Assembly (NCBI GenBank): GCA_003056165.1
Contig: LSNR01000014.1
Span: 6,408-70,407, forward strand
Source of the DNA: Parcubacteria group bacterium M6-OD1-3
Lineage (GTDB): Bacteria > Patescibacteriota > Minisyncoccia > Moranbacterales > UBA9337
DNA length: 64,000 nucleotides
Direction of reading: 5' to 3'
Below the pieces are notes generated by a model. It ran no database searches and was not told the origin of the DNA. It saw only the letters and a list, made by a program, of their open reading frames with translations. The position numbers were made by a program, and so were the translations under genes. Below, piece by piece: positions 4,003 through 60,635 of this stretch. The stretch's first letter is position 1, and each line of letters opens with the position of its first letter.

Positions 4003-6348
4003 TTGACTGAAAGAATGTTACGTGGTTTTGGTGTTGATGTTGTAGTTGATAAAACCGCTAGAGAGTTAGTGAAAAATGGTTTCAGAGTAACGGTTTTTTG
4101 TATTAATGCAGATGGAAACTTTAATAATGATGAATATCAAATTGTGCAAGTTAAGTCATCACTGCATCATAATCCGTTTAAAACTGAACGAAGTGCGAAA
4201 AAGGCCTTGGAAAGATTAAATATTGAGGAAGATATTGATATTTGGATTGCAGAAACATATCCATTTTTTATGGCAACACAAATAATGGATAGGCCGGTTA
4301 TTGTAATTGATCATGGAGTAGCACAAACAAAAGGATTTAATATTATTAGACGAATTATTTTTGCTTATATAAAATTTGCTCATAATTATATCTACTTTAA
4401 AAAAGCAGATAGGTTAGTACATATATCAAAGTTTATTCGCTCTCTCACGCCAACTTTTTTAAGAAAAAAACAGTTGGTAGTTTATAATGGAGCTGATAAT
4501 TATAAGCACCCTACAAAAGACGAGATTTTAAGATTTAAAATGAAAAATAACATCAAAAATGATGATAAGATATTACTTTATGTAGGGAGAATAAATTCTA
4601 ATGATCAACCCTATAAAGGAACTGAGGAATTAGTCGGTGTTTTCAAAAAATTAAGAAAGAAATATCCAAGTTTAAAATTAATTATGGCTGGTTTCGGCAA
4701 TAAGAAAGATGGTATGTGGTTGAAAAGTGCAGGCATAATTCCGTTTTTAAATGCTGACGATAAGGACATTGCATTATTGTATTCAATAACTGATTGTTAT
4801 GTAACAGCATCAAAGTGGGAGGGATTTAATTTGCCATTAGTGGAGGCTGGACACTTTAGTGTCCCTTATGTTGCATATAACATTGGTGCCCATAAGGAGG
4901 TTGTAAATGATAAGTCTGGTTTTTTGGTTAATACTAAGAAAGATTTTATTTCTAGTATAGAAAAAATTATTTCAAATGAGAATTTAAGAAATAATATGTC
5001 TGAAAATGCCAGAAAAAATGCTGAAAGATTTATGTGGAAAAAAACGGGTTTGCGTTATAGTAATCTTATAAAAGAAGTTGTTGGTAAAAATAAGAAAAAA
5101 TATTCACAATATGATAAAGGAATGGTTGATATTATCACGCTTAATTATAATGGAAAAAAACACTTGAAACCATTATTTAATTCTTTGAAGGAACAAACAT
5201 ACGAGAATATACGAGTTACTATGGTTGATAATGGATCGAGCGATGGTTCATGTGAGTATGTTAAAAAAGAATTTCCATGGGTGAATTTAATAAGATCAGA
5301 TACAAATCTTTTTTTTAGTAGAGGAAATAATCTTGCTGTTAATAAAACTAAGGGGGAATATATATTCTTTGTGAATAATGATATTGTTGTTGAACCGGAT
5401 GCTATTCAAAATCTAGTTAATACGATTAATAAAAAAGGGAAATATAATATTGCTTCAGTGGCGGCAAAAATGCTTTTATTTAATAATAGGCGAGTTTTTG
5501 ATTCAACTGGTGTGGTTATCTTAAGTAATGGCGCGCCGTTTAATCGTGGAATTGGACAGATAGATATAGGTCAATATGACAAAGTAGAAGAAATATTTGG
5601 AGCTTGTTTTGGAGCGGTTTTAATAAGGAGAAATGTTTATGAAAAGTCAGTCGGACCATTAGATAACTCGTATTTTGGATATTTTGAAGATGTCGATTGG
5701 AATTACCGTGCTAGAATTTTTGGTTATAAATCTTATTTCTGTCCAAAAGCTGTTGTTTATCATGACCATTCAGCGACAAGTAAGAAAATGGGCTATGAGT
5801 GGAAATACTACTTAATTCATAGAAATTTTTTAAAAACTATTATAAAAAACTTTCAATTTAAGCGAATGATTTTGAAGGGTGGATATAAAACACTTGAGCT
5901 AATAAATCATTTGCGAAAAACCAAAGATAGGGAAAGAAAATTATCAATATTGAAAATATTACTTCATGTAACATATTCAATGCCACTTCTAATTTTTAAA
6001 CGATTTAGAATACAAAGAAAGCGCTGTGCTCCTGATATTGAATGTGTAAAGTTTAGTCAAGGTGAGCAATCTTTTTTTGATGCTGTTAATTATAGTCCAA
6101 TATTAACATTGGATACATTGCAAGCTATGTTTGCCAGATTAGATATGATTAAAAAATTTAACAATTTTGAAATATCAGATATCGTCTCACAAATAGCTTA
6201 TTTGAATGAAAGAAAAATGATGATGAATGAAAAAAATTGGGATACTCAAACAGAAAAGCTTATAAAATCTTTAGAAAGATATATTGGAAAAAGATATGTG
6301 GATAAGTTCATAAAAGCGGTTGTAATAGATAAAATTTGGAAAAAATAG
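4003..6348 (+). CDS. bifunctional glycosyltransferase: N-terminal GT4-like domain fused to a GT2 (family 2) domain
   Basis: GT4-like block (YVGRINSNDQ...EGFNLPLVEAGHFSVPYVA) followed by GT2 hallmarks (DIITLNYNGKKHL...MVDNGSSDGS...FVNNDIVVE). Confidence 0.7.
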   Translation: MTERMLRGFGVDVVVDKTARELVKNGFRVTVFCINADGNFNNDEYQIVQVKSSLHHNPFKTERSAKKALERLNIEEDIDIWIAETYPFFMATQIMDRPVIVIDHGVAQTKGFNIIRRIIFAYIKFAHNYIYFKKADRLVHISKFIRSLTPTFLRKKQLVVYNGADNYKHPTKDEILRFKMKNNIKNDDKILLYVGRINSNDQPYKGTEELVGVFKKLRKKYPSLKLIMAGFGNKKDGMWLKSAGIIPFLNADDKDIALLYSITDCYVTASKWEGFNLPLVEAGHFSVPYVAYNIGAHKEVVNDKSGFLVNTKKDFISSIEKIISNENLRNNMSENARKNAERFMWKKTGLRYSNLIKEVVGKNKKKYSQYDKGMVDIITLNYNGKKHLKPLFNSLKEQTYENIRVTMVDNGSSDGSCEYVKKEFPWVNLIRSDTNLFFSRGNNLAVNKTKGEYIFFVNNDIVVEPDAIQNLVNTINKKGKYNIASVAAKMLLFNNRRVFDSTGVVILSNGAPFNRGIGQIDIGQYDKVEEIFGACFGAVLIRRNVYEKSVGPLDNSYFGYFEDVDWNYRARIFGYKSYFCPKAVVYHDHSATSKKMGYEWKYYLIHRNFLKTIIKNFQFKRMILKGGYKTLELINHLRKTKDRERKLSILKILLHVTYSMPLLIFKRFRIQRKRCAPDIECVKFSQGEQSFFDAVNYSPILTLDTLQAMFARLDMIKKFNNFEISDIVSQIAYLNERKMMMNEKNWDTQTEKLIKSLERYIGKRYVDKFIKAVVIDKIWKK

Positions 6349-6387
6349 AATCTCTTAAGAAAACTTTTATTAGTTTCTATTCTTCTA

Positions 6388-7347
6388 TTAGCTTGGGACG
6401 TAATAGGCAATTCCTTCATAATCCCATGTGCCCGAAAGATTATTAATAATATTATCTCTTTCTGTTGTGCTGGTTGTATAAAAATGATTACCCTGAATTT
6501 TATTAAAAAATCTGTAGACAGCTGTAGAGTTACTTTGACTACTGGAAAATATATAGTAAGCAATTCCTTCATAATTCCAAGTAGGAAGATTGTTAATTAT
6601 ATTATCTTTTTCTGTGGAACTTGCGGTGTAAAAATGAAAACCGGTGTTGGTATTAAAAAAGCGATAAAGTGGTGTTGTATTATAAGCTTGATTCTGGTAA
6701 GCGTTGTAGGTAATTCCTTCATAATTCCATGTATTTGAAAGATTATTTATAATAGTATCTCTTTCTGTAGAGCTCATGGTGTAAAAATGGTTTCCTTGAA
6801 TTTTATTAAAAAATCTGTAGATAGAAACTTCGTGTGCATAAGTAACAGTTGCTCCAGTTATTGTTCCGGGAGTAAGAGCTACTGATAATTCATCCAAAAG
6901 TTCATTGACTCTTAGGGATAAATTTGTTGTTCCAGAGGTAAATCCGGAAGTTGTTTTGGCGTGAATTGTGGCTATATGGACATCGTTTCCGTTGATACCT
7001 GTTGCATTTGCACCAGTAAACCACAAATGGCCATTAGTTATATCAGTGCTGTTAACCGTCAATGGGTCGAAAATTGAAGCATCATCCCCGACACTGACAC
7101 CTTCAGTTCCTTGAGTAGTATCAACTGTTACATAGGAAGCAGTAAAATCAAAATACATATTAAATCCGCCCAAATTTTTTCCTCCAGTATCTACATGGAC
7201 TTCAATATCGAAATTGGTGCTTGCGTCAACGTTTTGATTTGTTGGTGTAATCCAAACATCTCCCTCAGATGCTTGGGTAATACTAAAAATTCCAAGCGTT
7301 GATATTATTGATATTACAACAATTGCAATAGTGTATATCCTTTTCAT
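6388..7347 (-). CDS. secreted protein: cohesin-like N-terminal domain plus three copies of a roughly 50-aa YRFFN...HFYT...ER repeat (DUF5648-like)
   Basis: Signal peptide MKRIYTIAIVVISIISTLGIFSITQA. Three near-identical repeats YRFFNKIQGNHFYT[MT]S[ST]TERD.IINNLS.TW.YEGI. Confidence 0.45.
   Translation of the reverse strand: MKRIYTIAIVVISIISTLGIFSITQASEGDVWITPTNQNVDASTNFDIEVHVDTGGKNLGGFNMYFDFTASYVTVDTTQGTEGVSVGDDASIFDPLTVNSTDITNGHLWFTGANATGINGNDVHIATIHAKTTSGFTSGTTNLSLRVNELLDELSVALTPGTITGATVTYAHEVSIYRFFNKIQGNHFYTMSSTERDTIINNLSNTWNYEGITYNAYQNQAYNTTPLYRFFNTNTGFHFYTASSTEKDNIINNLPTWNYEGIAYYIFSSSQSNSTAVYRFFNKIQGNHFYTTSTTERDNIINNLSGTWDYEGIAYYVPS
6400..6840. repeat. three tandem 150-bp DNA repeats inside the CDS (the repeat units above)
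   Basis: Near-identical stretches such as cc[ct]tgaattttattaaaaaatctgtaga recur at about 6494 and 6793. Confidence 0.7.
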
Positions 7348-7597
7348 ATTTTTTGTATGTTATTTTTTTTATTGACATTTAATATTTCTATATTGTCCTT
7401 CTTGCAACATAATAACACATTAATATTATAGCATAGTTTAAATTATCTACAATTTTTTAAATACTTACAAAAATGTCATATCTTAAATTTAAAAAATTTA
7501 AGTTCAAAAAGCTTGAAATTTTAAATTAATAATGGTATGGTTATAGTTAATATTGAAAAAATGTAGTTCTTATAAAATAAATTTAGGAGGATGTATA

Positions 7598-9133
7598 ATG
7601 GAATTTAGTCAGTTGATGAAAGAAGTTGGAGCAGTCGGTATTCATTTTGAAAAAATGATGCCGGAGATAGAAATAAAGGCAATGACCGGTTTCCCTATTT
7701 TGATAGTTGGCGAAACCGGAACAGGAAAGGAACTTGTCGCAAAACTCATTCATAGGATGAGTAAAAGAAGCGATAAGCCTTTACAATTTGTAAATGTTCC
7801 CGCTATTAATAATGGTGTATTTGAAAGCGAACTATTTGGTCACGAAAAAGGTGCTTTCACGGATGCATCTAAAGCACGAAAGGGTGTTATTAGAGAAATT
7901 CACGGTGGAACTATCGTCTTGGATGAAATTGGCGATATGTCGCTAGAAACTCAAGCCAAAATTCTTCGCTGGCTGGAAAGTGGAGAGATTAAACCAGTTG
8001 GTTCTGATAGAGTGTTATTTGTAGATGTCAGAGTTATTGCCTCCACAAATAAAAAATTGGAGAATCTAATTGAGTCTGGTTTATTTAGACAAGACTTATA
8101 TTATAGACTAAGTTCATTGTCTATAGAAGTATCGCCTCTTAGAAAAAGTCAGGAGGCAATACTTGATCTAACAAAGTATTTTGTGGATAAAAATAAGAAA
8201 CATTTCGTTGATTTTCGTGGGAATTCCCTAGATGATCCGAGCGGAAGTGAACTCGCTAAGTTATTTAGCGAGTTGATTGAAGCAAATGCTCATTGTTCTA
8301 ATTTCTTATCTGGTAATGCCAGGGAATTGGAAAGTGTGGTGAAAGAATGGCTATTCAAGAGAGCTCTTAACTATAATAAAGAGAAAAATGCAGAAAGTCT
8401 TTTATCTACATATTATCTTGATAATAATAGTAGGTCTTCATCGAAACCAGAGTCGTCAAATGATGATAATACTAAAGTCTGTTGTGCAGATGAAGAGTCT
8501 GCTCTTGTAACTAATATTCGCAAAGCACTTATTTTATGTAAATGGAATACGAAAAATGCAGCTATATTACTGGAGTGTTCTGAAGAAGAGTTGCAAAAAA
8601 TAATCGAGGATAATAACATTTTTGTTGAGGAGGGAGATAATTATTCCATTAGCAGAGAGGATGTGAAACCAATCAAATCTTTCTCAACAGATAATCAACA
8701 TCAAATAGATGTCTTTCAAAATGCTAGCTGGCTGAAAAAAATCAACTGCAATTTTGCTGCACCCTCCAATAATGAATTGAAGGAGATCCATGATATTTTA
8801 GAGCGGAAAATTGCAGAGGTGGAGAAAGAAGTCTTTCAGATGGCAATTAACCATTTTAATGGTAATCTAAGAAAGGCTACAAGAAGCTTGGGAATAGGAG
8901 ATAAAAGGTTGAAGGCAGGACTGGAAAAATATAACATTTCTGCGGTTTCAGGTGTTCAATTGGAGGCTAATCCTGGTCCGCTAAACGAAATTCTTCTTAC
9001 TGAGGAGAACAAGTTGATTAAATTTCTTTTGATAAAAAATATGACAGCCAAAAATATTGCAAAAATTCTTGGTTATCACATTAATGCGGTTTATTGTAGG
9101 ATAAAGAGATATAATCTTAAGGAGGAAGAGTAG
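7598..9133 (+). CDS. sigma-54 interaction-domain (bEBP-like) AAA+ transcriptional regulator without a receiver domain
   Basis: Walker A GETGTGKE, then ESELFGHEKGAFTDAS (a variant of the GAFTGA loop), an arginine finger region, and a C-terminal Fis-type HTH plus a second HTH-like segment. RBS AGGAGG sits 8 nt upstream of the ATG at 7598; the ORF track start at 7553 lacks an RBS. Confidence 0.7.
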   Translation: MEFSQLMKEVGAVGIHFEKMMPEIEIKAMTGFPILIVGETGTGKELVAKLIHRMSKRSDKPLQFVNVPAINNGVFESELFGHEKGAFTDASKARKGVIREIHGGTIVLDEIGDMSLETQAKILRWLESGEIKPVGSDRVLFVDVRVIASTNKKLENLIESGLFRQDLYYRLSSLSIEVSPLRKSQEAILDLTKYFVDKNKKHFVDFRGNSLDDPSGSELAKLFSELIEANAHCSNFLSGNARELESVVKEWLFKRALNYNKEKNAESLLSTYYLDNNSRSSSKPESSNDDNTKVCCADEESALVTNIRKALILCKWNTKNAAILLECSEEELQKIIEDNNIFVEEGDNYSISREDVKPIKSFSTDNQHQIDVFQNASWLKKINCNFAAPSNNELKEIHDILERKIAEVEKEVFQMAINHFNGNLRKATRSLGIGDKRLKAGLEKYNISAVSGVQLEANPGPLNEILLTEENKLIKFLLIKNMTAKNIAKILGYHINAVYCRIKRYNLKEEE

Positions 9134-9254
9134 TATTCTCTTGCTGAGTATAATAAAAACAAAAGGGTTAAACTGTTAAGTCAGTTTAGTCCTTTTTTAA
9201 TTTCAAAATATAAAATGATGCAAAGGATAATACTAGATAATAGTTGGCAAAAAT

Positions 9255-9644: not shown

Positions 9645-9719
9645 AGTATTTTTGAATTACAATTTTTTATAATATATATTCCTTAATCAATGGAGAAATA
9701 CTAGCACATAAAAAAATAA

Positions 9720-9747
9720 TTGACAAGTGTTGCAGTTCTGATATACT
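9720..9747 (+). promoter_or_regulatory. sigma-70-like promoter TTGACA-16-TATACT, about 400 nt upstream of rpsB (long leader)
   Basis: Match to the -35/-10 consensus seen directly in the sequence. Confidence 0.45.
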
Positions 9748-10143
9748 GTTTTATGTAGTTCATATTGCTTTTGGCATATGGATTGCTCAGACCCTATCCA
9801 AAAACTCACCACACTTATTAAAAATTAAGTTTGCCAATTAAACATCGAAATTTCTGTAAAAAATTATTCAAAACTCGTCAGAATATATTAATATTCTTTC
9901 TCATTTTTTACAATTTTTTCCTAGAAATTTTTTCGTTTTAACCAGGCATGAATTTTCGGATAGGTTCTTAAAAAATAAACATGTTTTTCTAGACTCATTC
10001 CTGTCCGAATCTTGTTTAGGTCGGATTATGAGTTTTGGCTTTGATAAAATATATTAATATTATTATTAAAGATTGAAAAACAGGTGTTAATAATAGATTT
10101 TATTATGGAAGGAATTCCTAGAAATCTTTAATAAGGAAAAAAT

Positions 10144-13181: not shown

Positions 13182-13254
13182 GCCGAAATAGCTCAATTGG
13201 TAGAGCAATTGTTTTGTAAACAATAGGTTACCGGTTCAAGTCCGGTTTTCGGCT
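13182..13254 (+). tRNA. tRNA-Thr (anticodon TGT)
   Basis: Manual cloverleaf: acceptor gccgaaa/tttcggc, anticodon loop tttgtaa, T-loop ttcaagt. Confidence 0.8.
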
Positions 13255-13264
13255 CAAGAAAGAT

Positions 13265-13292
13265 TGATAAAAAGTTGAAAGTGAGTATAATT
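13265..13292 (+). promoter_or_regulatory. promoter TTGATA-16-TATAAT driving the tRNA-Tyr/Thr block
   Basis: Consensus-like -35/-10 about 18 nt upstream of the partial tRNA copy. Confidence 0.5.
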
Positions 13293-13309
13293 AAAATATT
13301 GGGTCGGTG

Positions 13310-13325
13310 GCAGAGTTCATCCAAA
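13310..13325 (+). other. 16-nt duplicate of the tRNA-Tyr 5' end (gggtcggtggcagagt) followed by unrelated sequence; partial pseudo-tRNA
   Basis: Exact match to the first 16 nt of the full tRNA-Tyr 81 nt downstream. No T-arm follows. Confidence 0.6.
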
Positions 13326-13390
13326 GGCTGATATAGGTCATGCCCAGAAAGATTATCTTAAAATTAAGATTGGTTAGGTTAATTGAATAT

Positions 13391-13474
13391 GGGTCGGTGG
13401 CAGAGTGGTCAAATGCATCAGACTGTAAATCTGACGACTTCGGTCTACGGCGGTTCAAATCCGTCCCGGCCCAC
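13391..13474 (+). tRNA. tRNA-Tyr (anticodon GTA), long variable arm
   Basis: Anticodon stem-loop tcaga-ctgtaaa-tctga, long variable arm, T-arm ggcggttcaaatccgtc. Confidence 0.85.
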
Positions 13475-13482
13475 ATAAACCC

Positions 13483-13555
13483 GCCCGGGTAGCTCAGCTG
13501 GTAGAGCATTTCCATGGTAAGGAAAAGGTCACCGGTCCAAGTCCGGTCTCGGGCT
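13483..13555 (+). tRNA. tRNA-Thr (anticodon GGT)
   Basis: Acceptor gcccggg/ctcgggc, anticodon loop atggtaa. Confidence 0.85.
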
Positions 13556-13616
13556 CAGTAAATATTAAAAAGGTAGCTTATGGATAGTATAACTGTTCAA
13601 ATGTTACGACAATAAA

Positions 13617-13775
13617 ATGGCAAATGAAAAATTAGTTAGAATGAAATGTACAGAATGCAATAATATCAATTATTATACGAATCGAAACAAGAAAAAACTT
13701 AAAGAAAAATTGGAGTTAAAAAAATATTGTAAATTTTGCAGAAAACATACCGTTCATAAAGAATTGAAAAAATAA
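13617..13775 (+). CDS. rpmG: 50S ribosomal protein L33 (52 aa; below the ORF-track size cutoff)
   Basis: Translation [52 protein letters not shown] has the L33 zinc-ribbon CxxC...CxxC pattern. Confidence 0.85.
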
Positions 13776-13798
13776 ATTTTGCAAGAAGGCTGTTTTGC

Positions 13799-13906
13799 AG
13801 TGGAAAGTTAGAGTCAAGGCGGACCTGTCAAACTTTCTGTTAGTTTAATTGTAAGTTAGTGAAAAGTTAGATACAGGCGGGCTTGTCCGACGAAGCGAAG
13901 CGTAGG
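13799..13906 (+). repeat. conserved pre-tRNA element, copy 1 (gtggaaagttaga...caaggcggacctgtcaaactttctgttagtttaat...taagttagtgaaaagttaga)
   Basis: About 80% identical to the element at 47016..47100. Both immediately precede tRNAs that share an identical 19-nt 5' end. Confidence 0.6.
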
Positions 13907-13976
13907 CGGGTGTCGTATAGTGGTAGTACAGGAGTCTCCAAAACTTCTAGCGGGAGTTCGATTCTCTCCACCCGTG
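13907..13976 (+). tRNA. tRNA-Trp (anticodon CCA)
   Basis: Anticodon stem-loop ggagt-ctccaaa-acttc, T-arm gggagttcgattctctc. G1-U72 wobble in the acceptor stem. Confidence 0.7.
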
Positions 13977-13984
13977 CGGATTAA

Positions 13985-14011
13985 AAAAATCGCTTGATTG
14001 AGCGATTTTTT
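13985..14011 (+). terminator. rho-independent terminator (aaaaatcgcttgattgagcgatttttt)
   Basis: Hairpin followed by a T-run directly after tRNA-Trp. Confidence 0.7.
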
Positions 14012-14084
14012 GGTAGGCAATTTAATAAGACTGAGTGGAGATTAGAACTTTTTAGCATATTTTTGCAGGTATGACATTTCTAAA

Positions 14085-15140
14085 TGTAATTGACAGTAAG
14101 AATTTTTGTTTTAGGCACATACATTTGTCGGTTCTTGTATTTCATTTAAACTATAATCTTTTAAAAATTTATTAGGACTTTTTCCATTTAAACTACAATG
14201 TCTTAAATTATTGTAATACATATTCCATAACCTAACACGATATTTCAATTCTTCCACATTAGCAAATTTCTCTCGAGAGTATAATCTTCTTTGATCACTA
14301 CCATGACTTCTTTCAACTGTTCCATTTTGAGTTGGACTACCTTTATCAATTAAGTAATGCATAATATTAAGTTTAGCACAAAATACATCCAATTGATGCA
14401 ATTTAGGATTCATTGGATCAGAACTTTTTAAATAGCCAGTATATCTATTAGTAAAAATAGCATGATTATCTGTTTTGATAGCCTTAATTTTAAAAGGAGC
14501 TTTCTTGAGTATTTTTTTTAAAAATATAATTGAATAATGATTAGATTGTCCATCATATATTTCTAAATGTCTCCATCTGCTAGATAAATCTATAGCTGTA
14601 AACTGATAATATCGCTTACCAGCAATCTTTCCTGGTACATATTTAACATCTATTTTTATCATTTCTCCGGGATTCAGTTTACTTCTAATATATTTGTATC
14701 TAATCCTTTTTCTTCTATATTTCTTAACTAAACTTTCCGCTTTTAATATTTTACCAATTGTTCTTTCATGAATATTAATACCTTCTTCTTCTAAATCCCA
14801 CTTTATCTTTAAAGCACACTCTTTCTTTTCTTTTCTTTTCTAATTTCAATAATTTTTTCTTTGATTCGAATAGAAATTTCCCTGGGATGTGTTTTAGGTC
14901 TAGTCGATTTAGATTCTAAACCTTTTTCTCTATATCTCCTATAGCTACTTAACCACCTTTCCAAACTTCTTTTACTATATGGACATATTTTAGAAACATC
15001 TACCAACTTAACTTCTTTTTTATAGATAGGAAGTATCCATCTTAATCTTTCCTCTTTAATTGTTTTTGACATATTTATACACATACATCAGAATATCTCT
15101 ATTCTGGGAAAACCGCCAGATGTTTGTGCATATTACATTT
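14085..15140 (-). mobile_element. IS481-like insertion sequence (boundaries approximate; only a weak 9-bp inverted match aaatgtaat/attacattt seen at the ends)
   Basis: Contains an HTH plus DDE (rve) transposase. It sits where secE-nusG would be expected after rpmG and tRNA-Trp. Confidence 0.45.
14111..15084 (-). CDS. IS481-family transposase in two frames (orfA 14809..15084 HTH; orfB 14111..14839 DDE integrase core), joined by a -1 frameshift within the GA-rich tract 14812..14839
   Basis: orfA has an HTH (KICPYSKRSLERWL). orfB has rve-like motifs (QFTAIDLSSR..., NGTVERSHGSDQRRLY, LNGKSP). The -1 frame is open across the agaaaagaaaagaaaagaaag tract. Confidence 0.6.
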
Positions 15141-24711: not shown

Positions 24712-25452
24712 ATGAATACAAGACAAGAAAAAATTTTGGGAAGTATTATTGAGGAATATACGCTAAACGCCGTTCCTGTTGGTTCTAAAGTTTTGGTTGG
24801 GAAATACAAAATTGATGCCAGTTCGGCAACTATTAGAAATGAAATGGCAGAATTGGAAAAGGAAAAATATTTGTATCAACCGCACATTAGTGCCGGCAGA
24901 ATTCCTACTGATAAGGGTTATAGGTATTTCGTGGAAGAATTGATGAAAAATAAAGAATTGACAAGACGGGAGCAAAACAAAATGCAAGAAGAGCTATTAA
25001 AGTTGAAAGCTAAAAATACAAGAATGGCAAAGACAACGGCAAAGTTATTGTCGGGATTGAGTGGAAATTTGGCGGTTAGTGGGAATTTGGATAATAATGA
25101 ATTTGTTGATTTTGGGATGAAAGAACTTTTCGAGGAGCCGGAATTTCAAGGATTAGACGAAGTTTGTCGTTTGGCAGAAACACTAGATTATGTTGATGAA
25201 ATGTTTGATAAAATTATCGGAGAGATTGAAAACGGAGAAACGAAAATTTTCATCGGTGAAGAAAATCCAGTTAAAAAGTTTTCAAATTGTTCGATGATTG
25301 TGTCTCCGTATAAATTAAAATCAGGAGAAAAAGGAATATTGGCATTGATTGGTCCAAAGAGAATGAAATATGCAAGAAATAAATCGTTATTGGAATATGT
25401 TAGAAAGATATTGGGTGGAGCAGGAATGATTTTATTGGTTGTTATGGTGTAA
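24712..25452 (+). CDS. hrcA: heat-inducible transcription repressor HrcA (short, 246 aa)
   Basis: N-terminal winged-helix region ILGSIIEEYTLNAVPVGSKVL. Sits in the hrcA-grpE-dnaK context behind CIRCE. Confidence 0.75.
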   Translation: MNTRQEKILGSIIEEYTLNAVPVGSKVLVGKYKIDASSATIRNEMAELEKEKYLYQPHISAGRIPTDKGYRYFVEELMKNKELTRREQNKMQEELLKLKAKNTRMAKTTAKLLSGLSGNLAVSGNLDNNEFVDFGMKELFEEPEFQGLDEVCRLAETLDYVDEMFDKIIGEIENGETKIFIGEENPVKKFSNCSMIVSPYKLKSGEKGILALIGPKRMKYARNKSLLEYVRKILGGAGMILLVVMV

Positions 25453-25498
25453 ATATGAATTAGAATATTTAATTTAAAATTTAAAGTTAATATAATTT

Positions 25499-26407
25499 AT
25501 GAATAAAGAAAATAATAAAAAATATAAAAAGCCAAAGGCTTGGTTGATGTTGCTCACTGCTAAAGCTGTAATAGTCAATAAAAATAATGATGTTCTATTA
25601 TTAAAAAGAGCAAGTAAAGAGCGAATGCATGCTGGAAAATATGACTTGCCAGGAGGAACAATGGAGCAGGGAGAGACTGTTGAACAAGCTTTAATAAGAG
25701 AGGTTAGGGAGGAAACTGGATTAGAAATAGCTAATGCGGAATTAATAAAGATTAGTGAATATCCCGAAGGACACGAGAGATCAGATGAGTTAAAGGCATT
25801 AAGGTTTGTTGTTAAATATAATGGTGATGATTTCAAGGATGTAGTATTAAATGAAGCAGAACATACTAAATTTGAATGGTTATCGATTGATAAAGCAATT
25901 GAGAAATTATCCGATGAAGGATTTGAAAAAGAAAAAAAAGAAACTCTGATTGAAGCAAAAAAATATTTGGAAATGAAAAATAGTTTGGAGAACTGGAAGC
26001 GATGTTTAGCAGAGTTTGATAATTATAAGAAGCAACAAGAAGAAGCAAGAAAGGATACTGTGAAATATGCGACGGAAAATATTGTAATGCAGGTTCTACC
26101 AGTGATTGATAATTTTACTAGTTCAGTAGCGCATATTCCAGAAGATGAAAAAGACGGAGCTTGGGTGCAGGGAATAATGTTTATTAAAAAACAGCTAGAG
26201 GATGTTTTACGAGAGAATGGTGTAGAGGAAATTAAAGTAAAAATTGGTGATAGGTTTGATACTCAACTTTGTGAGGCGGTAGAAGACAATAGCTGTAGTG
26301 ATTGTAAGACAAAAAAGAAATTTAAGAATAAAATCAAAAAAGTTGTTTTGCAGGGATATAAAATTGGAGATAAAGTTGTGAGACCGGCGAGAGTGATAGT
26401 TGAGTAG
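25499..26407 (+). CDS. grpE: NUDIX hydrolase domain fused to nucleotide exchange factor GrpE
   Basis: N-terminal Nudix box with every GX5EX7REUXEEXGU position matched (GTMEQGETVEQALIREVREETGL). C-terminal GrpE (VLPVIDNF...GVEEIKVKIGDRFDTQLCEA...GYKIGDKVVRPARV). Confidence 0.8.
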   Translation: MNKENNKKYKKPKAWLMLLTAKAVIVNKNNDVLLLKRASKERMHAGKYDLPGGTMEQGETVEQALIREVREETGLEIANAELIKISEYPEGHERSDELKALRFVVKYNGDDFKDVVLNEAEHTKFEWLSIDKAIEKLSDEGFEKEKKETLIEAKKYLEMKNSLENWKRCLAEFDNYKKQQEEARKDTVKYATENIVMQVLPVIDNFTSSVAHIPEDEKDGAWVQGIMFIKKQLEDVLRENGVEEIKVKIGDRFDTQLCEAVEDNSCSDCKTKKKFKNKIKKVVLQGYKIGDKVVRPARVIVE

Positions 26408-26799
26408 TTCACAGTTTACGATATATATCGTCTCGGAAGACTGAATTTTACCAAGAGCAAAGCGATTGGATAAAATTCTTCTATCTCTGTCTATTAGTAG
26501 GTAGGTGTAATTTCGAAAAGGTTTAGAATAAACTTTTATTAAAGAATTTTTAAAATTTACTGAGATCACGGATAGATTATTTTTCTAATATTCGCTACTA
26601 GCTCATATTGAAAAATATATCTTCCGAGATGACAGGCGTTAACCGAGATGATAGGCATTGATTGAGATCACACGCTAGGACCGACAGACAGATGCTGGGA
26701 ACGAAGAAAAATGGAGATTTAAAATTTAAATAAATTAATAAATAATTTAAAATAATCATTGTCTAGTGATTACTAATCATTATTCAATGATAAAAAAAT

Positions 26800-28779
26800 A
26801 TGTCAAAAATATTAGGAATTGACCTTGGAACAACAAACAGCGCGATGGCTGTCGTTCAAGGAGGTAAACCGGAAATTATTGAAAATAAAGAGGGTAATAG
26901 AACAACCCCTTCAATGGTGGCGGTTAATAAAAATGGTGAAAGATTAGTTGGTCTTTTGGCAAAAAGACAAGCAGTGGCTAATCCGGAGAACACTTTGTTT
27001 TCTGTAAAAAGATTAATTGGAAGAAATTTTGATGATGCAGAAGTACAGGAAGACATTAAATTGATGCCATACAAGATTGTCAAAGGTGGAAAAGGTGAAA
27101 CAAAAGTGAAAATGGGAGACAAGGAATATACTCCGCGAGAAATTTCCGCAATGATTTTGCAAAAACTAAAAGCGGATGCTGAAGATAAATTGGGAGAAAA
27201 AATTGAAGAAGCGGTAATTACTGTGCCGGCATATTTTGATGATTCTCAAAGAAAAGCGACTAAGGAGGCTGGAGAAATTGCCGGGTTAAAGGTGAAAAGA
27301 ATTATTAATGAACCGACTGCCGCTGCCTTAGCGTACGGTTTTGATAAAAAGAAAAACGAAAAAATTGCCGTTTATGATTTAGGTGGTGGAACATTTGATA
27401 TCTCCATCTTAGAAGTTGGTGATGATACGGTTGAAGTAATATCAACAAATGGAGATACTCATTTGGGTGGAGATGATTTTGATCAAGTTCTTATTAATTG
27501 GATTATTGATGAATTTAAAAAGCAGGAAGGAATTGATTTGAGTAACGATAACTTAGCTTTACAAAGAATTAAAGAGTCTGCGGAAAAAGCGAAAATTGAG
27601 CTTTCTACCGCACAAGAAACTGAGATTAATCAACCATTTATTACTACTGATGACTCCGGTCCAAAACATTTAGTAATGACATTAAGTAGAGCTAAACTGC
27701 AAGAATTAGTCAGTGATCTATCTGCAAAAACAATGGAGCCGGTTAAAAAAGCTTTGGCGGATGCGAAACTGGAAACTAAGGATATTAATGAAGTGATTAT
27801 GGTTGGTGGAATGACAAGAATGCCTTTAATTCAAGAAGAAGTTGAAAAATTCTTTGGTAAAAAACCAAATGCAACGATGAATCCTGACGAGGTAGTGGCG
27901 ATGGGAGCAGCTATTCAAGGTGGAGTTTTGACTGGTGATGTAAAAGATGTATTATTGCTTGATGTAACACCATTGACTTTAGGATTGGAAACAATGGGCG
28001 GAATTTCTACTCCATTGATTGAACGAAACACAACTATTCCAACGAAGAAATCGCAAATTTTCTCAACAGCAGTTGAAAATCAGCCAAGTGTGGAAATTCA
28101 TGTTTTACAAGGTGAGCGAGAAATGGCGGAAGGAAATAAAAGTTTAGGAAGATTTATTCTTGATGGAATTGCCCCGGCTCCGCGTGGAGTGCCACAAGTT
28201 GAAGTAACATTTGACATTGATGCTAATGGAATTTTAAATGTTTCTGCTAAGGATAAAGCAACTGGAAAAGAGCAGTCTATACGAATTGAAGCTTCCAGTG
28301 GAGTAAGTGAAGAAGAGATTGAAAAGATGAAAAAAGACGCCGAGACTCATGCCGAAGAAGATAAAAAGAAAAAGGAAGCGGTTGAAACTAGAAATGTGGC
28401 GGAAAGTTTAATTAGCACTACCGAAAAAGCAATTAAAGAGGCTGGTGATAAAATTTCTGCGGACAAGAAAAAACCGGTTGAAGAAAAAATGGAAGCTTTA
28501 AAGAAAACTCTTAAAGATGAAAAAGCTGATACTGAGGCAATTAAAAAAGCGACGGAAGAATTTTCAACCGAAGCCCAAAAGATTGGCGAAGAGCTTTATA
28601 AAGCAACTGCTCCAGAAGGTGGAGATCCTGCTAGCCAAGCCGAAGCTTCAGCGAAGGCTGGGAGTGAAGGTCAAGCCGGAACTAAAGAAGCTCCAAAGGA
28701 TGCTGAGACAGAGCCGGCTAAAGAGGAAGAAAAGAAAAAAGACGATAGTGGAGATAAAAAAGACGAAGAGAAGAAATAG
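26800..28779 (+). CDS. dnaK: molecular chaperone DnaK (Hsp70)
   Basis: [28 protein letters not shown]-like motifs over the full-length protein. Confidence 0.95.
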
Positions 28780-50361: not shown

Positions 50362-52236
50362 ATGATAACAAAAGAAGAAAAAAAAGCTTTAGCGATAAAG
50401 CTTTTACAAAAAAATATGAATTATAAAAAAAATGAAGAAAGTAAGAATGGAAGAAACAGGAATAATGAAAACAAAAAGCGTAATTATGATTATAAAAACG
50501 CTAAAAATAATCAGCAACGAAATAATAATTTTCGAAATGAGTCTGGTGTAATTAAAACAAAAATTAAAGGATTGCGAATTATTCCTTTAGGCGGTCAAGA
50601 AGAAGTCGGTCGAAATATGACGGTTTTTGAATATAAGAATGACATTGTAATCTTGGATATGGGTTTACAATTTCCAGAAGAGGATATGTTGGGAGTTGAT
50701 TATATTGTACCTGATATTTCATATCTTAAAGGGAAAGAGAAAAATATTCGTGGAGTGATTTTTAGTCATGGACACTTAGATCACATCGGTGCGGCACCAA
50801 TTTTATTGCAACAGTTAAATTACCCGACAGTTGTTGGGCGAGATTTCACTTTGGCGTTGGTTAAACATAAAATGGAAGATCACGAAAAAGATTCAGCAAA
50901 ACGATTGAAAATTATTAATATCAAATCAATCGATCAGAAGATTAGATTGGGAGATTTTAAAATAAGTTTTTTCAAAATAGAACATTCTGTAATGGATGCA
51001 GTTGGTGTCATCTTTGAAACTTCAGAAGGAACGATAATTCATCCTGGGGATTGGACGGTTGGTCGGGACGAAAAAGGAGCTCGGACGATTTCTTATGAAA
51101 ATCTTTCCAAATTACCTCGTCCGACAATTTTAATGTTGGAAAGTCTCGGAGCAACGGATCACACTGAACCGCCATCGGAAAAAAAGATGTATGAAAATCT
51201 AACAGATATTATTGGCTCTGCCAAAGGTAAAACTATTATTGCAACATTTGCCTCACAAGTAGAAAGAATTGGGAAAATATTTGATATTTGTCAACGAGCT
51301 GGAAAGAAAGTTGCACTAGATGGATATAGTATGAAAATGAATGTAGAAATTGCCAGAAAACTGGGATACATTAAGCCAGCAAAAGAAATATTGATTGATA
51401 TTAGGGATATTCATAAATATTCGGATGACAAAGTTGTGGTTATTTGTACAGGGGCACAAGGTGAAGGTAATGCTGTTCTTTCTAGAATGGTGGCTGATAG
51501 CCATCGTTATGTAAGAATTAGTAAGAAAGATACAATAGTATTTTCTTCTTCCGTTATCCCAGGAAATGAGAGAACTATTCAAAGATTGAAAGATAACTTA
51601 TATCGCAAATGTGATAATGTTATTCATACTAATATGATGGATGTTCATATTAGCGGACATTGTAATGCTTCGGATATTCAAGAAATGATAAAACAAGTTA
51701 AACCTGATTACTATATCCCGGTTTATGCTAACCATTATTTCCTTAAAGAAGCTCAAAAACTTGCGATAAAAATTGGATTTAACCCAAAAAATATTTTCAT
51801 TTTGGATAATGGTAGTGTTTTTCAATTGCACAATAAAAAAGCTACATTGACAAAAGAAAGAATAAAAACGGATTACGTTTTTATTGATGGACTCGGTGTC
51901 GGTGATGTCGGACAGGTGGTTTTGAGGGATAGACAAATGTTGGCCGAAGATGGAATGTTTGTAATTACGGTTATTATTGATAGCAAAACTAAAAAAGTTA
52001 TTGGTAATATGCAGATAACTTCTCGAGGATTTATTTATGTAAAAGAAAATTTTGATCTGGTAAATGCCACTAAGGAAGTTGTCAAAAAAGTTGTAAACAA
52101 AAATACCTCTAAGGATAGAAAAGCCAAAATAAATTGGGTCTTAATAAACAATCAAGTTAGAGAAGAAGTTGGAAAATTTTTATTTAAAAAAACTCAGCGA
52201 CGCCCAATGGTCTTGCCGGTAATTGTAGAGGTCTAA
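50362..52236 (+). CDS. rnj: ribonuclease J (metallo-beta-lactamase/beta-CASP) with N/K/R-rich N-terminal extension
   Basis: IIPLGGQEEVGRNMTVFEY, HxHxDH motif VIFSHGHLDHIGAAP, beta-CASP and C-terminal domains. Confidence 0.85.
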   Translation: MITKEEKKALAIKLLQKNMNYKKNEESKNGRNRNNENKKRNYDYKNAKNNQQRNNNFRNESGVIKTKIKGLRIIPLGGQEEVGRNMTVFEYKNDIVILDMGLQFPEEDMLGVDYIVPDISYLKGKEKNIRGVIFSHGHLDHIGAAPILLQQLNYPTVVGRDFTLALVKHKMEDHEKDSAKRLKIINIKSIDQKIRLGDFKISFFKIEHSVMDAVGVIFETSEGTIIHPGDWTVGRDEKGARTISYENLSKLPRPTILMLESLGATDHTEPPSEKKMYENLTDIIGSAKGKTIIATFASQVERIGKIFDICQRAGKKVALDGYSMKMNVEIARKLGYIKPAKEILIDIRDIHKYSDDKVVVICTGAQGEGNAVLSRMVADSHRYVRISKKDTIVFSSSVIPGNERTIQRLKDNLYRKCDNVIHTNMMDVHISGHCNASDIQEMIKQVKPDYYIPVYANHYFLKEAQKLAIKIGFNPKNIFILDNGSVFQLHNKKATLTKERIKTDYVFIDGLGVGDVGQVVLRDRQMLAEDGMFVITVIIDSKTKKVIGNMQITSRGFIYVKENFDLVNATKEVVKKVVNKNTSKDRKAKINWVLINNQVREEVGKFLFKKTQRRPMVLPVIVEV

Positions 52237-54385: not shown

Positions 54386-54889
54386 ATGAATAATAAAACG
54401 AAATTGTTAAATATAATAAAGAAAAGCAAATTGACAAATAAAGAACAGAATGATTTTGGTAAATATTTGAATAGTTTAAGGTTTGATAATTTAGAGCGAA
54501 TGATAAAAATGTTTGGAAATAAATCGAATGAATTAGCTGATTTTTGGTTGAGCTTGAGGACAAGAATTTTTTTACTCCAAGAAATAGATACAAGTAATAA
54601 AATTATAGAAGTAGAAAAAGAAAAAATCAAAAAAAGTATTATAGATATGAATGATGAGGAATTTTATGCTTGTGTCTATACGATGAAGATTGAGGCTAAT
54701 ACGACGAAAGTTGATTTAGATAGGAAAATCAAAAATTTATTAAAAGCAGAAAAAGAAAATCATCAGAAATTTGTAGAAATATCAAATAATTTATTAAGGG
54801 GTATTTTTAAAAAACAAGCAAAAAAAGTGAAGAAGAATGATGAACAAAGATATGAGAATGTACTTAATAAAATTAAAGGATTGAACTAG
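54386..54889 (+). CDS. hypothetical soluble helical protein
   Basis: ORF with no recognised motifs. First gene of a five-gene unknown block. Confidence 0.35.
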   Translation: MNNKTKLLNIIKKSKLTNKEQNDFGKYLNSLRFDNLERMIKMFGNKSNELADFWLSLRTRIFLLQEIDTSNKIIEVEKEKIKKSIIDMNDEEFYACVYTMKIEANTTKVDLDRKIKNLLKAEKENHQKFVEISNNLLRGIFKKQAKKVKKNDEQRYENVLNKIKGLN

Positions 54890-54893
54890 AAAT

Positions 54894-55820
54894 ATGAGAG
54901 ATGAAATAAAAGTTAATAATGATAGTGGCAGAAAATCTTTGGAGCAATTAAATTTTAGCTACCACAAAGAAGTCATCTTCAATCAGAAAATATCTTTAAT
55001 GGATAACAGAAGAATAGAGGAATATGGTATAATTAAAGAATTAAATCAGGAAGTGGAAAACAGTGGGAAAAGAAAAGGTATTATGCGTAGACTTGAAGAG
55101 GTTGCTGGTAAGAATAAACTTTTAAGAGGAGCTATCGTTGCTGGAATACTATTGACAACGGATTCAGCGATTGGTCGAACGGTTATAAATAATAAGGAAG
55201 TCAATAATGCAATGACAAATTTTATACAAGGAATTCGTGTTGAGAAAAAAACTAGTAATGAAGAAATTGATACTCAAAGAAGATTTGTGGAAGGAATAAA
55301 TAATCCAAATAAAGAGAATTTTACTGAAAAAACTGAAAAACAAGAGGAAATAAAGGAAAAATTTGTAGAACCAAAAAAGGGGACATCAGAATATTATCTT
55401 TGGAAGTTAATGCCAGGTACAAAAGAAGAAAAAGAGAAAATAATTAAAGAGCGTCGACGAGAGCAAGTGGAAAAACAATCAGCTAAAGCTTCAGACGAAG
55501 AACAATTAGGAAAAAAAATTAATATAAAAAACGGTAGATTTAATTTACGACCAAGCCAATCTATTCGTCGCATAGTTTCTCCCGAAACAACTTTATATAC
55601 AATTGAGATTCAAAAACAACAGCAAGATTTACGGCAAAAGTTATTAGATAGTAATAACTATAATTTTCCAAAATCTAATATCCACATCAATCCAGATGCT
55701 AGTGTCGGTAATGTAGACGCAAATTCTAGTGCCAGAGTAAGAATTGGTCCGAATGTTCAGGTGGGAAATATAGAAGCGGAAGATAATGCGGACATACAAA
55801 TTGGCACTGCAAGATATTAA
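54894..55820 (+). CDS. hypothetical protein with one TM-like segment and C-terminal V/G/N repeat (NVDANSSARVRIGPNVQVGNIEAEDNADIQIG)
   Basis: The ORF abuts the previous gene's stop, suggesting translational coupling. Confidence 0.35.
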   Translation: MRDEIKVNNDSGRKSLEQLNFSYHKEVIFNQKISLMDNRRIEEYGIIKELNQEVENSGKRKGIMRRLEEVAGKNKLLRGAIVAGILLTTDSAIGRTVINNKEVNNAMTNFIQGIRVEKKTSNEEIDTQRRFVEGINNPNKENFTEKTEKQEEIKEKFVEPKKGTSEYYLWKLMPGTKEEKEKIIKERRREQVEKQSAKASDEEQLGKKINIKNGRFNLRPSQSIRRIVSPETTLYTIEIQKQQQDLRQKLLDSNNYNFPKSNIHINPDASVGNVDANSSARVRIGPNVQVGNIEAEDNADIQIGTARY

Positions 55821-55825
55821 TCACT

Positions 55826-57346
55826 ATGAGTAATAAAAAAGAAAATTCGTTAGCTGAAGGAGATAATAAAGAAAAAGCATCAAAAAATAATTTGGTTGAT
55901 AAATTAAAAGAGATAGATGTAATTGGGAAAGAGGAGGAAAGTATATTGAAATTATTACAAGATGAATTAAACGATTTTAAAAGTGAAGAGTTAGATACGA
56001 AGAAAAAAGAAGGTGGTGTTTTGAGCAATTTGGCGGAAATATACAGGAATAATAAACTGTTAAAGGCTACAATAGTTGGATTAAATATATCAATAATTAT
56101 ACCTGAAGTAGCGATTGCAAAAAATTTAGTAGGAGCTAATGGTTCAATGTTGGAGCTTAAAAGTAGCGACAGTTTAAATTCTGCGACTAAATTGCTCTTG
56201 GAACAATTAAAAATTGGAAAAGTCGACAAGAATTTATTAAATGCCCAAATATCAAGTGTAGATGTTGATAATGTGGAAGCTAATAAGATAGAGGAAAAAC
56301 AAGGATATAAATCTGATGAAGAGGGAGCAAATACTCAAGAAATGCGTGCAGTTATTGATGCAGTTCTTCAACATAAAAAATATCAAGAAAAATTAGTTGA
56401 AAGATATGGTGAAGATGGGGCTAGAGAGTATATCAATAAAATAAAAGAGCAAGAGGATCGAATAATTGGACCAAATGGTGAAGATTGGTATAATGAAGAA
56501 GATGTAAAAAAAGGTGTAATTGTCAATGAACAAAGGAATAGTTCTGATTTTAGATTGGATAAAAGTAAAAAATATACAGTAGAACATACGAGAAAAGAAG
56601 TTATGCAACATATTGGTAGTGAAGATTATCTAAATAAACTAACAAAAGAATTCAATGGTGACGAGAATAGAGCCAGAAAAGAACAGAAAAAAAGAGTAAA
56701 TCGTGTCAAAAATGCCGAAGTGAATATTAAAGCTGAAAGGACTTCAGGAGAGATTTATAATATGCTGAGAAGACAAGCGAATGGAAATATCCCTAAAAAT
56801 ATAGTGGGAAAAGAAAGGAGAAAAATACTAACAAATATAGTTGAATATTATAAAAAATATTTTGCACGGAGAGAATTATACGGTTTTAGTATATTTGATA
56901 ATAGTGAAAAAATTTATATTTTTAAAGATACTCCTAAAGGAGAGAAGTTCGATAATAGTATTAGGCATGAGTTTTTGCATAGTAGCACCCGTGGTGATAA
57001 AAATATTTCAGAAAAGGTGAAAAATATTCTTAGCGAGACATTTCGGTCTAGTAATAGAAGGAAAGAGCGTGTAATGAATGATTATTTATTAGGTAGTTCG
57101 GAGAGACTTGTTAGGAAACAACAGTTAGATTATCAATTAGAAGAGTATGGAATTAAAAAATATGGAGAAAAATTTACTAGAAAGCACTATGATGCTATAA
57201 TGCAAATGTATAATATAGGTGCATTTAGTGAAGATGTAGAACAATTTATAAGAACAACAAAACCTGATTATAAAACATTTAAAGAGATTTTTGACGAAAT
57301 AGCAAAAAATGAAGATGAGAAAAAGCAACAGGAAGGGACAGTATAG
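55826..57346 (+). CDS. hypothetical protein with HExxH (HEFLH) motif; possible zincin-like metallopeptidase
   Basis: IRHEFLHSSTRGD at about aa 380. The N-terminal region is weakly similar to the preceding ORF (NKLL..IV.G segment). Confidence 0.35.
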   Translation: MSNKKENSLAEGDNKEKASKNNLVDKLKEIDVIGKEEESILKLLQDELNDFKSEELDTKKKEGGVLSNLAEIYRNNKLLKATIVGLNISIIIPEVAIAKNLVGANGSMLELKSSDSLNSATKLLLEQLKIGKVDKNLLNAQISSVDVDNVEANKIEEKQGYKSDEEGANTQEMRAVIDAVLQHKKYQEKLVERYGEDGAREYINKIKEQEDRIIGPNGEDWYNEEDVKKGVIVNEQRNSSDFRLDKSKKYTVEHTRKEVMQHIGSEDYLNKLTKEFNGDENRARKEQKKRVNRVKNAEVNIKAERTSGEIYNMLRRQANGNIPKNIVGKERRKILTNIVEYYKKYFARRELYGFSIFDNSEKIYIFKDTPKGEKFDNSIRHEFLHSSTRGDKNISEKVKNILSETFRSSNRRKERVMNDYLLGSSERLVRKQQLDYQLEEYGIKKYGEKFTRKHYDAIMQMYNIGAFSEDVEQFIRTTKPDYKTFKEIFDEIAKNEDEKKQQEGTV

Positions 57347-57400
57347 GATAAACGCAATACTATAAATAATAATTTTAAAAATTAAACAAAAATAAATACT

Positions 57401-58282
57401 ATGGAGAAAAACAATAAAGTCCCAATGGGGATAGTCGTTACATTAATAGTGTTAGTAATAGTACTTATCGGAGTTATGATCGCCTTAATGATAAAGATGA
57501 AAAGCGAAGTAAATAATAATAATATAAATTTTGGTAATGGAACAAGTAGTCTACCTAGAAATACTAAAAATGTTTACAATAATGATGATATGCCAATGAA
57601 CAAAAAAATTATTTTTAATAATTTTTTCAAAATTAAATCTGAAAAGCAAAATAATGCTATAACTAATGTGGCTGGTGAAGAGATATTTACAGGTCCTGAT
57701 CAGGAATATAACCAACCATCAAGTATAGTTTATAATTTTACAGATCCCAATAATCAAGAGAAATATCTTTTTATTGATTTAAATTTATATGATCTACAAT
57801 CTATCGAGAAGTATGAAAATAAAAAATGGGAATATTTTAATGTTCTAGAAGAAGTGAGGGATGTGTTGGGGGGAGAGTCAACACTAAATGAAGATAGTTT
57901 TCAGTCGTCAAATGATTTAATATTTCCATCTATTCCAGCTAGTTGTTCAACACCAACTCATAGTAAATTTATTAAAACAAATTTTTTATCTGGATTTAGA
58001 TTTACAACAAATTGTACTCAAGAATATGCACCTATTAAGACAGTTACATATTTTTTCGATGGATTGAGTAATAATGGTAAGTACCATATTACTTTTGAAT
58101 ATTCAGATCTGAAAGTAAAATCCATAGAACAATATTTTTCAGAAAATCCAGATGAAGAATCGAGTAATGAAGTTAATGTTATAGAAAAAACAACTAATTT
58201 ATTTGAAAATGAAAATGATAATAATTTTACGCCGTCATTACTTAAAATTGATAAATTTATAAAATCTATTCAGTATAAATAA
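57401..58282 (+). CDS. N-terminally membrane-anchored extracytoplasmic protein, hypothetical
   Basis: TM helix IVVTLIVLVIVLIGVMIALMI followed by an N-rich ectodomain. Confidence 0.35.
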   Translation: MEKNNKVPMGIVVTLIVLVIVLIGVMIALMIKMKSEVNNNNINFGNGTSSLPRNTKNVYNNDDMPMNKKIIFNNFFKIKSEKQNNAITNVAGEEIFTGPDQEYNQPSSIVYNFTDPNNQEKYLFIDLNLYDLQSIEKYENKKWEYFNVLEEVRDVLGGESTLNEDSFQSSNDLIFPSIPASCSTPTHSKFIKTNFLSGFRFTTNCTQEYAPIKTVTYFFDGLSNNGKYHITFEYSDLKVKSIEQYFSENPDEESSNEVNVIEKTTNLFENENDNNFTPSLLKIDKFIKSIQYK

Positions 58283-58310
58283 TAATCTTAAAAATTAAAC
58301 AAAAAATATT

Positions 58311-58775: not shown

Positions 58776-58786
58776 AAATAAACAGT

Positions 58787-60283: not shown

Positions 60284-60332
60284 ATAAAGGCTGGATAAAC
60301 TTAATAGGTTCTTATTTTTTAACTTATATTAT

Positions 60333-60605: not shown

Positions 60606-60635
60606 ATTGTGAATAAAAAGGAAGGAGGTGGAAAT

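Follow-up and report, generated by a model that had tools for sequence, protein, structure and literature searches.

In a 64,000-nucleotide (nt) stretch of contig LSNR01000014.1 from Parcubacteria group bacterium M6-OD1-3 (the window), we analyzed a gene for a 511-amino-acid (aa) protein that resembles the bacterial enhancer-binding proteins (bEBPs) and is called the activator here. Our preferred reading, to which we give about an even chance of being correct, is that it is a PspF-like sigma-54 activator in a rare sigma-54-bearing clade of Moranbacteria, within the Candidate Phyla Radiation (CPR). We favor this reading slightly, because the conservation of the motor and its loop, together with the loss of this loop in known sigma-54-independent relatives, outweighs the CPR-wide prior. 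The activator is a clear bEBP homologue and no new kind of system. Its unusual features are a rebuilt tail with multiple helix-turn-helix (HTH) modules, a lid that has diverged, a CPR host, and membership in an extremely rare family.

Motor, loop and C-terminal tail of the activator

A preliminary description of this DNA had called the AAA+ sigma-54 interaction domain intact, and our analysis agreed with it: GETGTGKE and ESELFGHEKGAFTDAS are both present, and Pfam Sigma54_activat (PF00158) matched aa 17-176 over model positions 8-167 of 168; the score was 196.6 bits (E 3e-58), the cut-off being 20.2. In the PDB, ZraR and NtrC1 share approximately 50% identity with the AAA+ core, and the top Foldseek matches to the AlphaFold model were NtrC1, FlrC, ZraR, FleQ, and PspF, over about 240 columns. 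The mean predicted local distance difference test score (pLDDT) of this model was 74.8. The catalytic motifs are listed in Table 1, where R164 and R170 are presumably the arginine fingers, by homology to PspF R162/R168. Judged by its sequence, the activator lacks none of the catalytic motifs and is an intact AAA+ ATPase of clade 6. Because only 16 residues precede the AAA+ domain, it has no N-terminal regulatory domain, as the preliminary description had also stated. The match to AAA_lid_14, which precomputed annotation assigns to all other homologues found, is missing in all members of the activator family, whose lid is divergent. The L2 (pre-sensor I) insertion is present and reads EIKPVGSD, the canonical form being F-ERVGG, and its P also occurs in relatives from Marinimicrobia.

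The GAFTGA signature is altered to GAFTDA as described earlier; we read it at nt 7850-7867, with D89 in place of the second glycine. In the L1 region, columns E76-H82, K84, G85, T88, and A90 are invariant, and F87 is invariant inside the activator family. The pattern ESELFGH.KG[AS]FT[DG]A is kept in 7/7 family clusters, and the most distant member, P0007, reads GSFTGA, i.e., it has the canonical G at position 5. The loop expected of a bEBP is present, with its F and T invariant. Within the family, identity was 68-89% in the L1 region and 59-81% in the AAA+ core, compared with 23-50% in the second HTH module, 0-16% in the linker, and 38-60% over whole proteins. As judged from these sequences, the sigma-54-contacting loop is under selection in the family.

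The GAFTDA loop had also been taken as a possible sign of sigma-54 independence, with Rhodobacter NtrC as the precedent for a GAFTGA variant. Neither point was borne out. D stands at the fifth loop position (GAFTDA or GAYTDA) in 44 of 113 non-family top matches, a set biased to sequences that share words with the query; many of the D-bearing matches contain a receiver, GAF, or FHA domain and originate in groups rich in sigma-54, Desulfobacterales for example. Among characterized variants, Escherichia coli NorR G266D and G266N retain enhancer binding, ATP hydrolysis, and ATP-dependent formation of open complexes with the sigma-54 holoenzyme, with ATPase and open-complex yields below wild-type levels (PMC2941729). 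In the sigma-54-independent NtrC of Rhodobacter capsulatus, Caulobacter NtrC, NtrX, and VpsR, on the other hand, the L1 loop is deleted, not changed by a point mutation, and each documented sigma-54-independent bEBP relative, TyrR included, has the GAFTGA loop deleted or replaced. The loop of the activator is full-length and conserved, neither deleted nor degenerate as in that class. GAFTDA is thus a common, sigma-54-competent form of the loop. To read the G-to-D change as a marker of sigma-54 independence is a tempting shortcut, which we correct here; whether the activator is independent of sigma-54 therefore hinges only on the presence of rpoN in the genome.

Behind a poorly conserved linker, the AlphaFold model contains three units, each formed by a long helix followed by an HTH (modules 1 to 3, Table 1). 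Module 1, with helices at 302-313, 318-325, and 329-338, occupies the canonical bEBP position: full-length PspF, RtcR, and NorR models reach about aa 340, placing their C-terminal HTH on it. Its third helix is acidic (SEEELQKIIEDNN). It aligned in register with module 2 (hhalign, E 2.8e-4), had no Pfam match of its own, and is missing from P0006 and P0007. Module 2 holds an HTH_8 match at aa 405-434 (nt 8810-8899; 28.2 bits, cut-off 22) and was modeled with pLDDT 85-95. The best structural look-alikes of the tail and module 2 were Fis and the NtrC4 DNA-binding domain, with probability 0.7-0.9, template modeling (TM) scores of about 0.6-0.7, and E-values that were not significant. The third helix of module 3 is basic (HINAVYCRIKRYN; pLDDT about 90). 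This module matched HTH_23 in the activator itself with 17.9-21.5 bits, under the Pfam cut-off, and passed the cut-offs in orthologues P0002 and P0003 (HTH_7 26.0, HTH_23 26.1, HTH_Tnp_ISL3 28.3); it also aligned with module 2 (hhalign, E 1.3e-3). The two C-terminal HTH regions noticed in the preliminary description are therefore real as modules 2 and 3, and module 1 is probably a third, in degenerate form. By sequence, the place of the ancestral DNA-binding HTH appears to have degenerated, with modules 2 and 3 as an apparent extension.

Relatives, origin and expression of the gene

In its layout, the activator resembles the group 4 bEBPs (PspF, HrpR/S), which consist of AAA+ and HTH, have no regulatory domain, and are controlled in trans. 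Like them, it has the AAA+ domain almost at the N-terminus, no regulatory domain in cis, and a C-terminal HTH, here HTH_8 with a further HTH behind it. PspF models align to aa 18-196 (PDB) and aa 19-326 (NCBIfam), but identity to PspF is only about 30% and the NCBIfam score lies far under the equivalog cut-off. Unlike PspF and HrpR/S, the activator has a GAFTDA loop, a degenerate canonical HTH position, about 170 extra residues with two further HTH modules, and a CPR host. The trans-acting partner of group 4 was not found, as there is no PspA- or HrpV-like gene beside the activator or anywhere in the window.

Other known proteins share part of these features. The engineered NorR variants G266D and G266N (GAFTDA and GAFTNA) include the same loop as the activator, but NorR has an NO-sensing GAF domain, from whose repression the substitution escapes, and the activator has no such domain. 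The sensor-less bEBPs of Marinimicrobia (398-400 aa; P0009, P0013, P0052, and others) are similar in having Walker A at about residue 39, no receiver domain, D at loop position 5 (GAYTDA), "PVG" in L2, and a long linker before HTH_8. They differ in having 47-53% identity over AAA+ only, a canonical AAA_lid_14, and a single HTH, and Marinimicrobia is a phylum with RpoN-box loci (L067, L132). The closest AAA+ cores outside the family belong to NtrX/AtoC-type response regulators of Desulfobacterota, for example P0051, P0059, and P0090 (55% over aa 17-200). One of them, P0059, shares GAFTDA with the activator, but in these proteins a receiver domain stands at the N-terminus, the lid is standard, and there is one HTH_8. 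R. capsulatus NtrC, Caulobacter NtrC, NtrX, VpsR, and TyrR, which have homologous AAA+ and HTH parts and regulate sigma-70 promoters, would be the model if rpoN were absent; the loop that they have lost or replaced is intact and conserved in the activator.

A search of 5.8 billion protein clusters returned only 7 clusters at 90% identity for the activator family, the activator's own cluster among them. Identities to the activator were 54-60% for P0002-P0005, 52% for P0006, and 38% for P0007. With the C-terminal 322 aa as the query, 3 clusters were found among 1.84 billion 50%-identity representatives. One orthologue is labelled Candidatus Moranbacteria, and the closest named relatives of the RNase J encoded in the window are Candidatus Moranbacteria / Moraniibacteriota (73-88% identity), which places the host in CPR/Patescibacteria. 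The activator is confined to a subclade, because its 7 clusters compare with well over a hundred Moranbacteria-type clusters of RNase J. The nearest AAA+ cores in proteins other than family members, those of ordinary receiver-domain activators of Desulfobacterota, share no more than 55% identity. On sequence grounds, the activator fits an old horizontal acquisition.

The RNase J gene (50362-52236) had a best database match of only 93%, compared with 100% for the activator. The source assembly of the window is therefore incompletely represented in the protein collection, and the metagenome-assembled genome GCA_003056105.1 probably lacks the RNase J part of the genome.

The window has a G+C content of about 31% and is full of housekeeping genes. 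The G+C content of the activator gene matches that of the DNA around it, and three lineages share the order activator - rpmE - rpsB - tsf - PSP1 - TPR; on this sequence evidence, we regard the gene as native to the genome and maintained. Only these downstream housekeeping genes are syntenic. The upstream glycan and DUF5648 genes are not conserved; the upstream neighbor is an unrelated gene in locus L009 and uvrA in L007. The position beside a surface-glycan cluster, pointed out in the preliminary description, thus holds here (a GT4-GT2 fusion, a methyltransferase, a sulfotransferase, and DUF5648) and in L005, but not in L007 or L009. With only housekeeping genes in synteny and these neighbors not conserved, no target gene can be named.

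The upstream region (4003-7347) encodes a 781-aa fusion of GT4 and GT2 glycosyltransferases and, beside it on the opposite strand, a 319-aa secreted protein containing DUF5648 (YRFFN...GNHFYT) as three repeats. In L005, too, a DUF5648 gene is found upstream of the activator orthologue.

In the mechanical list of open reading frames (ORFs), the longest frame of the activator is 7553-9133 and opens at TTG. We placed the true start at ATG 7598 on the basis of the sequence, because AGGAGG lies upstream of it and the orthologues all begin M-[DE]-F there. The -35/-10 pair of the promoter is conserved in four lineages, including upstream of the orthologues in L005, L007, and L009. Bracketed by its own sigma-70-type promoter and a terminator, the gene should form a monocistronic unit. 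An identical ORF was found in four independent assemblies (GCA_003056105.1, SRR6439372, SRR14803398, and SRR6439370), which excludes a sequencing artefact; the ORF is intact, although its disruption on resequencing had been considered earlier.

A short conserved element, GTTCTTATAAAATAAAT / TTTTGAAAAATAAATC, was also noticed in the 5' untranslated region, at 7560-7580 between the promoter and the ribosome-binding site, with counterparts at equivalent positions in L005, L007, and L009.

The possible sigma-54 partner and the competing readings

The reading of the activator as a PspF-like sigma-54 activator requires this Moranbacteria clade to be among the rare CPR lineages that carry rpoN, and the following results weigh against it. 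No rpoN was found in the 64-kb window and about 45 kb of related loci by Pfam scans, a six-frame RpoN-box regular expression, and a hidden Markov model derived from 105 RpoN proteins. In GTDB genomes, at least 120 loci matched an AT-rich DNA pattern for the RpoN box, with no named CPR genome among the matches listed, which is weak evidence. These matches came from Flavobacteria, Clostridia, and similar groups, along with four from "uncultured bacterium"; two of the latter (L101, L102) have lptB/hpf/hslUV-type neighbors and two (L037, L112) are too short for placing. Meheust et al. (2019) reported the sigma-54 family in 5 of 2177 CPR genomes and the bEBP-type family in 30, the corresponding numbers for non-CPR genomes being 792 and 891 (PMC6744442, Suppl. 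Data 1). The earlier remark that rpoN is often absent from reduced genomes thus holds for CPR. On priors, given 5 genomes with sigma-54 compared with 30 with the bEBP-type family, a bEBP-like gene in CPR usually has no sigma-54 partner. In the literature on sigma-54 or rpoN in CPR, Patescibacteria, or Parcubacteria, we found little beyond these counts. Further, no convincing -24/-12 promoter was present in the window or related loci, about 110 kb in all, the L2 region reads KPVGSD specifically in this family instead of the canonical ERVGG, and the lid and the C-terminal half are atypical.

The pattern TGGCAC-N5-TTGC, allowing up to 2 mismatches, occurred 42 times in the window compared with 27 +/- 5.5 expected, nearly always inside genes, and the related loci yielded no candidate. 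The sole intergenic match was TGGCATATGGATTGCT (TGGCAT-N5-TTGC) at 9772-9787, which we rejected as a sigma-54 promoter. A strong conserved sigma-70 promoter (9720-9747) precedes it by about 25 nt, the match itself makes up the 3' arm of the hairpin that begins this transcript (-13 kcal/mol, z -3.45), and L009 and L005 have neither its GG nor its TTGC.

These results bear on a second reading, which we consider possible but with clearly less than an even chance: in a genome that lacks sigma-54, the activator may be an orphan bEBP which, after horizontal acquisition, has been retained as an AAA+ regulator that binds DNA. Its point of action would be the sigma-70 holoenzyme, as for TyrR, R. capsulatus NtrC, and Caulobacter NtrC, or it would remodel another protein by its conserved pore loop. 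The scarcity of sigma-54 relative to bEBP-type genes in CPR argues for it, and so do the failure to find rpoN or a -24/-12 promoter in the clade sequence searched and the divergence of the lid and L2 region. The DNA-binding end has been rebuilt, with the ancestral HTH position acidic or deleted and two new HTH modules added, and the tiny family in one subclade fits a single-gene transfer. However, the known sigma-54-independent relatives have all lost the GAFTGA loop, whereas here the loop and the ATPase motifs are the best-conserved part across deep divergence, and GAFTDA itself is sigma-54-competent. It is rather unlikely, in our opinion, that in a clade without sigma-54 a bEBP motor whose GAFT[D/G]A loop and ATPase motifs have all stayed under selection has been retargeted to a new substrate, for instance the sigma-70 holoenzyme or some other protein bound to DNA, along with the rebuilding of its HTH tail into three modules. 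If true, this would be the first loop-retaining sigma-54-independent bEBP.

The rarity of the family, the PGAP name "hypothetical protein" for one orthologue, and the fact that neither a target nor a partner was identified would also suit the remains of a bEBP gene that was acquired horizontally and is now decaying or without function. We consider this highly improbable, as the ORF is intact in every lineage and in the four independent assemblies, the catalytic motifs are invariant while linkers have lost nearly all identity, and the expression signals of the gene (promoter, ribosome-binding site, and terminator) are its own and conserved. The best PADLOC model, RtcR_PspF2 (E 5e-79), and the alignment of the NCBIfam RtcR, PspF, and NorR models over aa 17-340 suggested a regulator of stress or defense, of the RtcR or PspF type, that belongs to a named system (RNA repair rtcBA, phage shock). 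The NCBIfam scores were far under the equivalog cut-offs (NorR 239 vs 476, RtcR 210 vs 650, PspF 195 vs 444), the matches were confined to generic AAA+ and HTH parts, the activator has no CARF domain, and rtcA/rtcB, pspA, and norVW were not found nearby or elsewhere in the window. Such a regulator therefore has very little chance of being the right assignment, and we rejected a defense-system identity, since PADLOC matched only the generic AAA+/HTH part of the RtcR/PspF models.

As a sigma-54 activator, the protein would bind DNA via C-terminal modules 2 and/or 3 and assemble as a hexamer. ATP hydrolysis and the L1 loop would then remodel the closed complex of sigma-54 RNA polymerase; the sites would be a single -24/-12 promoter or a small number of them at other places in the genome. 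Because no regulatory domain is present in cis, either its own expression from the sigma-70 promoter or a partner protein in trans would determine how active the protein is.

Other features of the window and implications

Table 1. Features of the activator gene and of the pilin-like locus in the window, with window positions and the evidence for each
Feature	Position	Strand	Evidence
Sigma-70-type promoter, TTGAAA-N17-TATGGT, TG before -10 (extended -10)	7513..7541	+	Consensus scan
Ribosome-binding site AGGAGG, 7 nt before ATG	7585..7590	+	Read from sequence; conserved in upstream alignments
Coding sequence, 511-aa bEBP-like protein	7598..9133, stop codon included	+	ORF list; 100% identical to P0001
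AAA+ sigma-54-interaction domain (aa 17-180) and divergent helical lid (aa 181-260)	7646..8377	+	Pfam PF00158, structure matches
Walker A, GETGTGKE (aa 38-45)	7709..7732	+	Translation; columns invariant in family alignment
L1 loop region ESELFGHEKGAFTDAS (aa 76-91)	7823..7870	+	Translation, motif search
Walker B, TIVLDE (aa 105-110)	7910..7927	+	D109, E110 invariant
FRQDLYYRL (aa 163-171), presumed arginine fingers R164, R170	8084..8110	+	Columns invariant
Sensor II, GNARELES (aa 239-246)	8312..8335	+	G239, N240, R242, E243, L244 invariant
Linker, poorly conserved, predicted disordered (aa 267-299)	8396..8494	+	pLDDT <50; 0-16% identity within family
Module 1 (aa 302-338), three-helix Fis-like unit at canonical bEBP HTH position	8501..8611	+	AlphaFold, hhalign
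Module 2 (aa 391-444), long helix then Fis-type HTH	8768..8929	+	Pfam HTH_8
Module 3 (aa 462-504), second long-helix and HTH unit	8981..9109	+	Pfam in orthologues, hhalign
Intrinsic-terminator-like hairpin, then T run	9161..9196	+	Terminator scan: 15 pairs, then TTTT
T4SS_pilin (PF18895) proteins	58787-60283, 60609-60983, 61105-61488, 61521-62162		Pfam

The rpmE-rpsB intergenic region (9645-10143) carries the strong sigma-70 promoter at 9720-9747 (TTGACA-N16-TATACT), also kept in L005 and L009, with a 5' hairpin behind it at 9755-9786. About 250 nt further on, immediately ahead of rpsB, comes a conserved hairpin with a U-run (about 9990-10040). The arrangement resembles a leader or attenuator of rpsB-tsf, or else a small RNA; it had no Rfam match, and Rfam on the whole window gave tRNAs only. 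An insertion of about 190 nt in this putative leader (9787-9975) has no counterpart in the orthologous regions of L005 and L009; its inverted ends are imperfect (GACCCTATCC ... GGATAGGTTC), and no second copy lies within the window. It may be an element resembling a miniature inverted-repeat transposable element (MITE) or a simple indel.

At 54386-62823, five co-directional ORFs that have no Pfam match (167, 308, 506, 293, and 154 aa) precede the four T4SS_pilin proteins of Table 1, and together they may represent a surface-filament locus of CPR or one resembling type IV secretion. In the order hrcA - (NUDIX-GrpE) - dnaK (24712-28779), GrpE is fused to an N-terminal NUDIX hydrolase domain (25499-26407). 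At 13182-14662, a tRNA cluster (Thr, Tyr, Thr, Trp) is followed on the opposite strand by a 183-aa rve-integrase ORF, which may be the remnant of an integrated element.

Transcriptional regulation in CPR is almost unstudied, and either outcome on rpoN would be informative. If the clade has rpoN, the activator would represent a minimal single-activator sigma-54 system in a phylum-level group nearly devoid of sigma-54, and a tractable case of an ultra-small genome acquiring enhancer-dependent transcription horizontally. If rpoN is absent, the conserved GAFTDA loop would show that a bEBP motor can be selected for non-sigma-54 remodelling, for which there is no known example.

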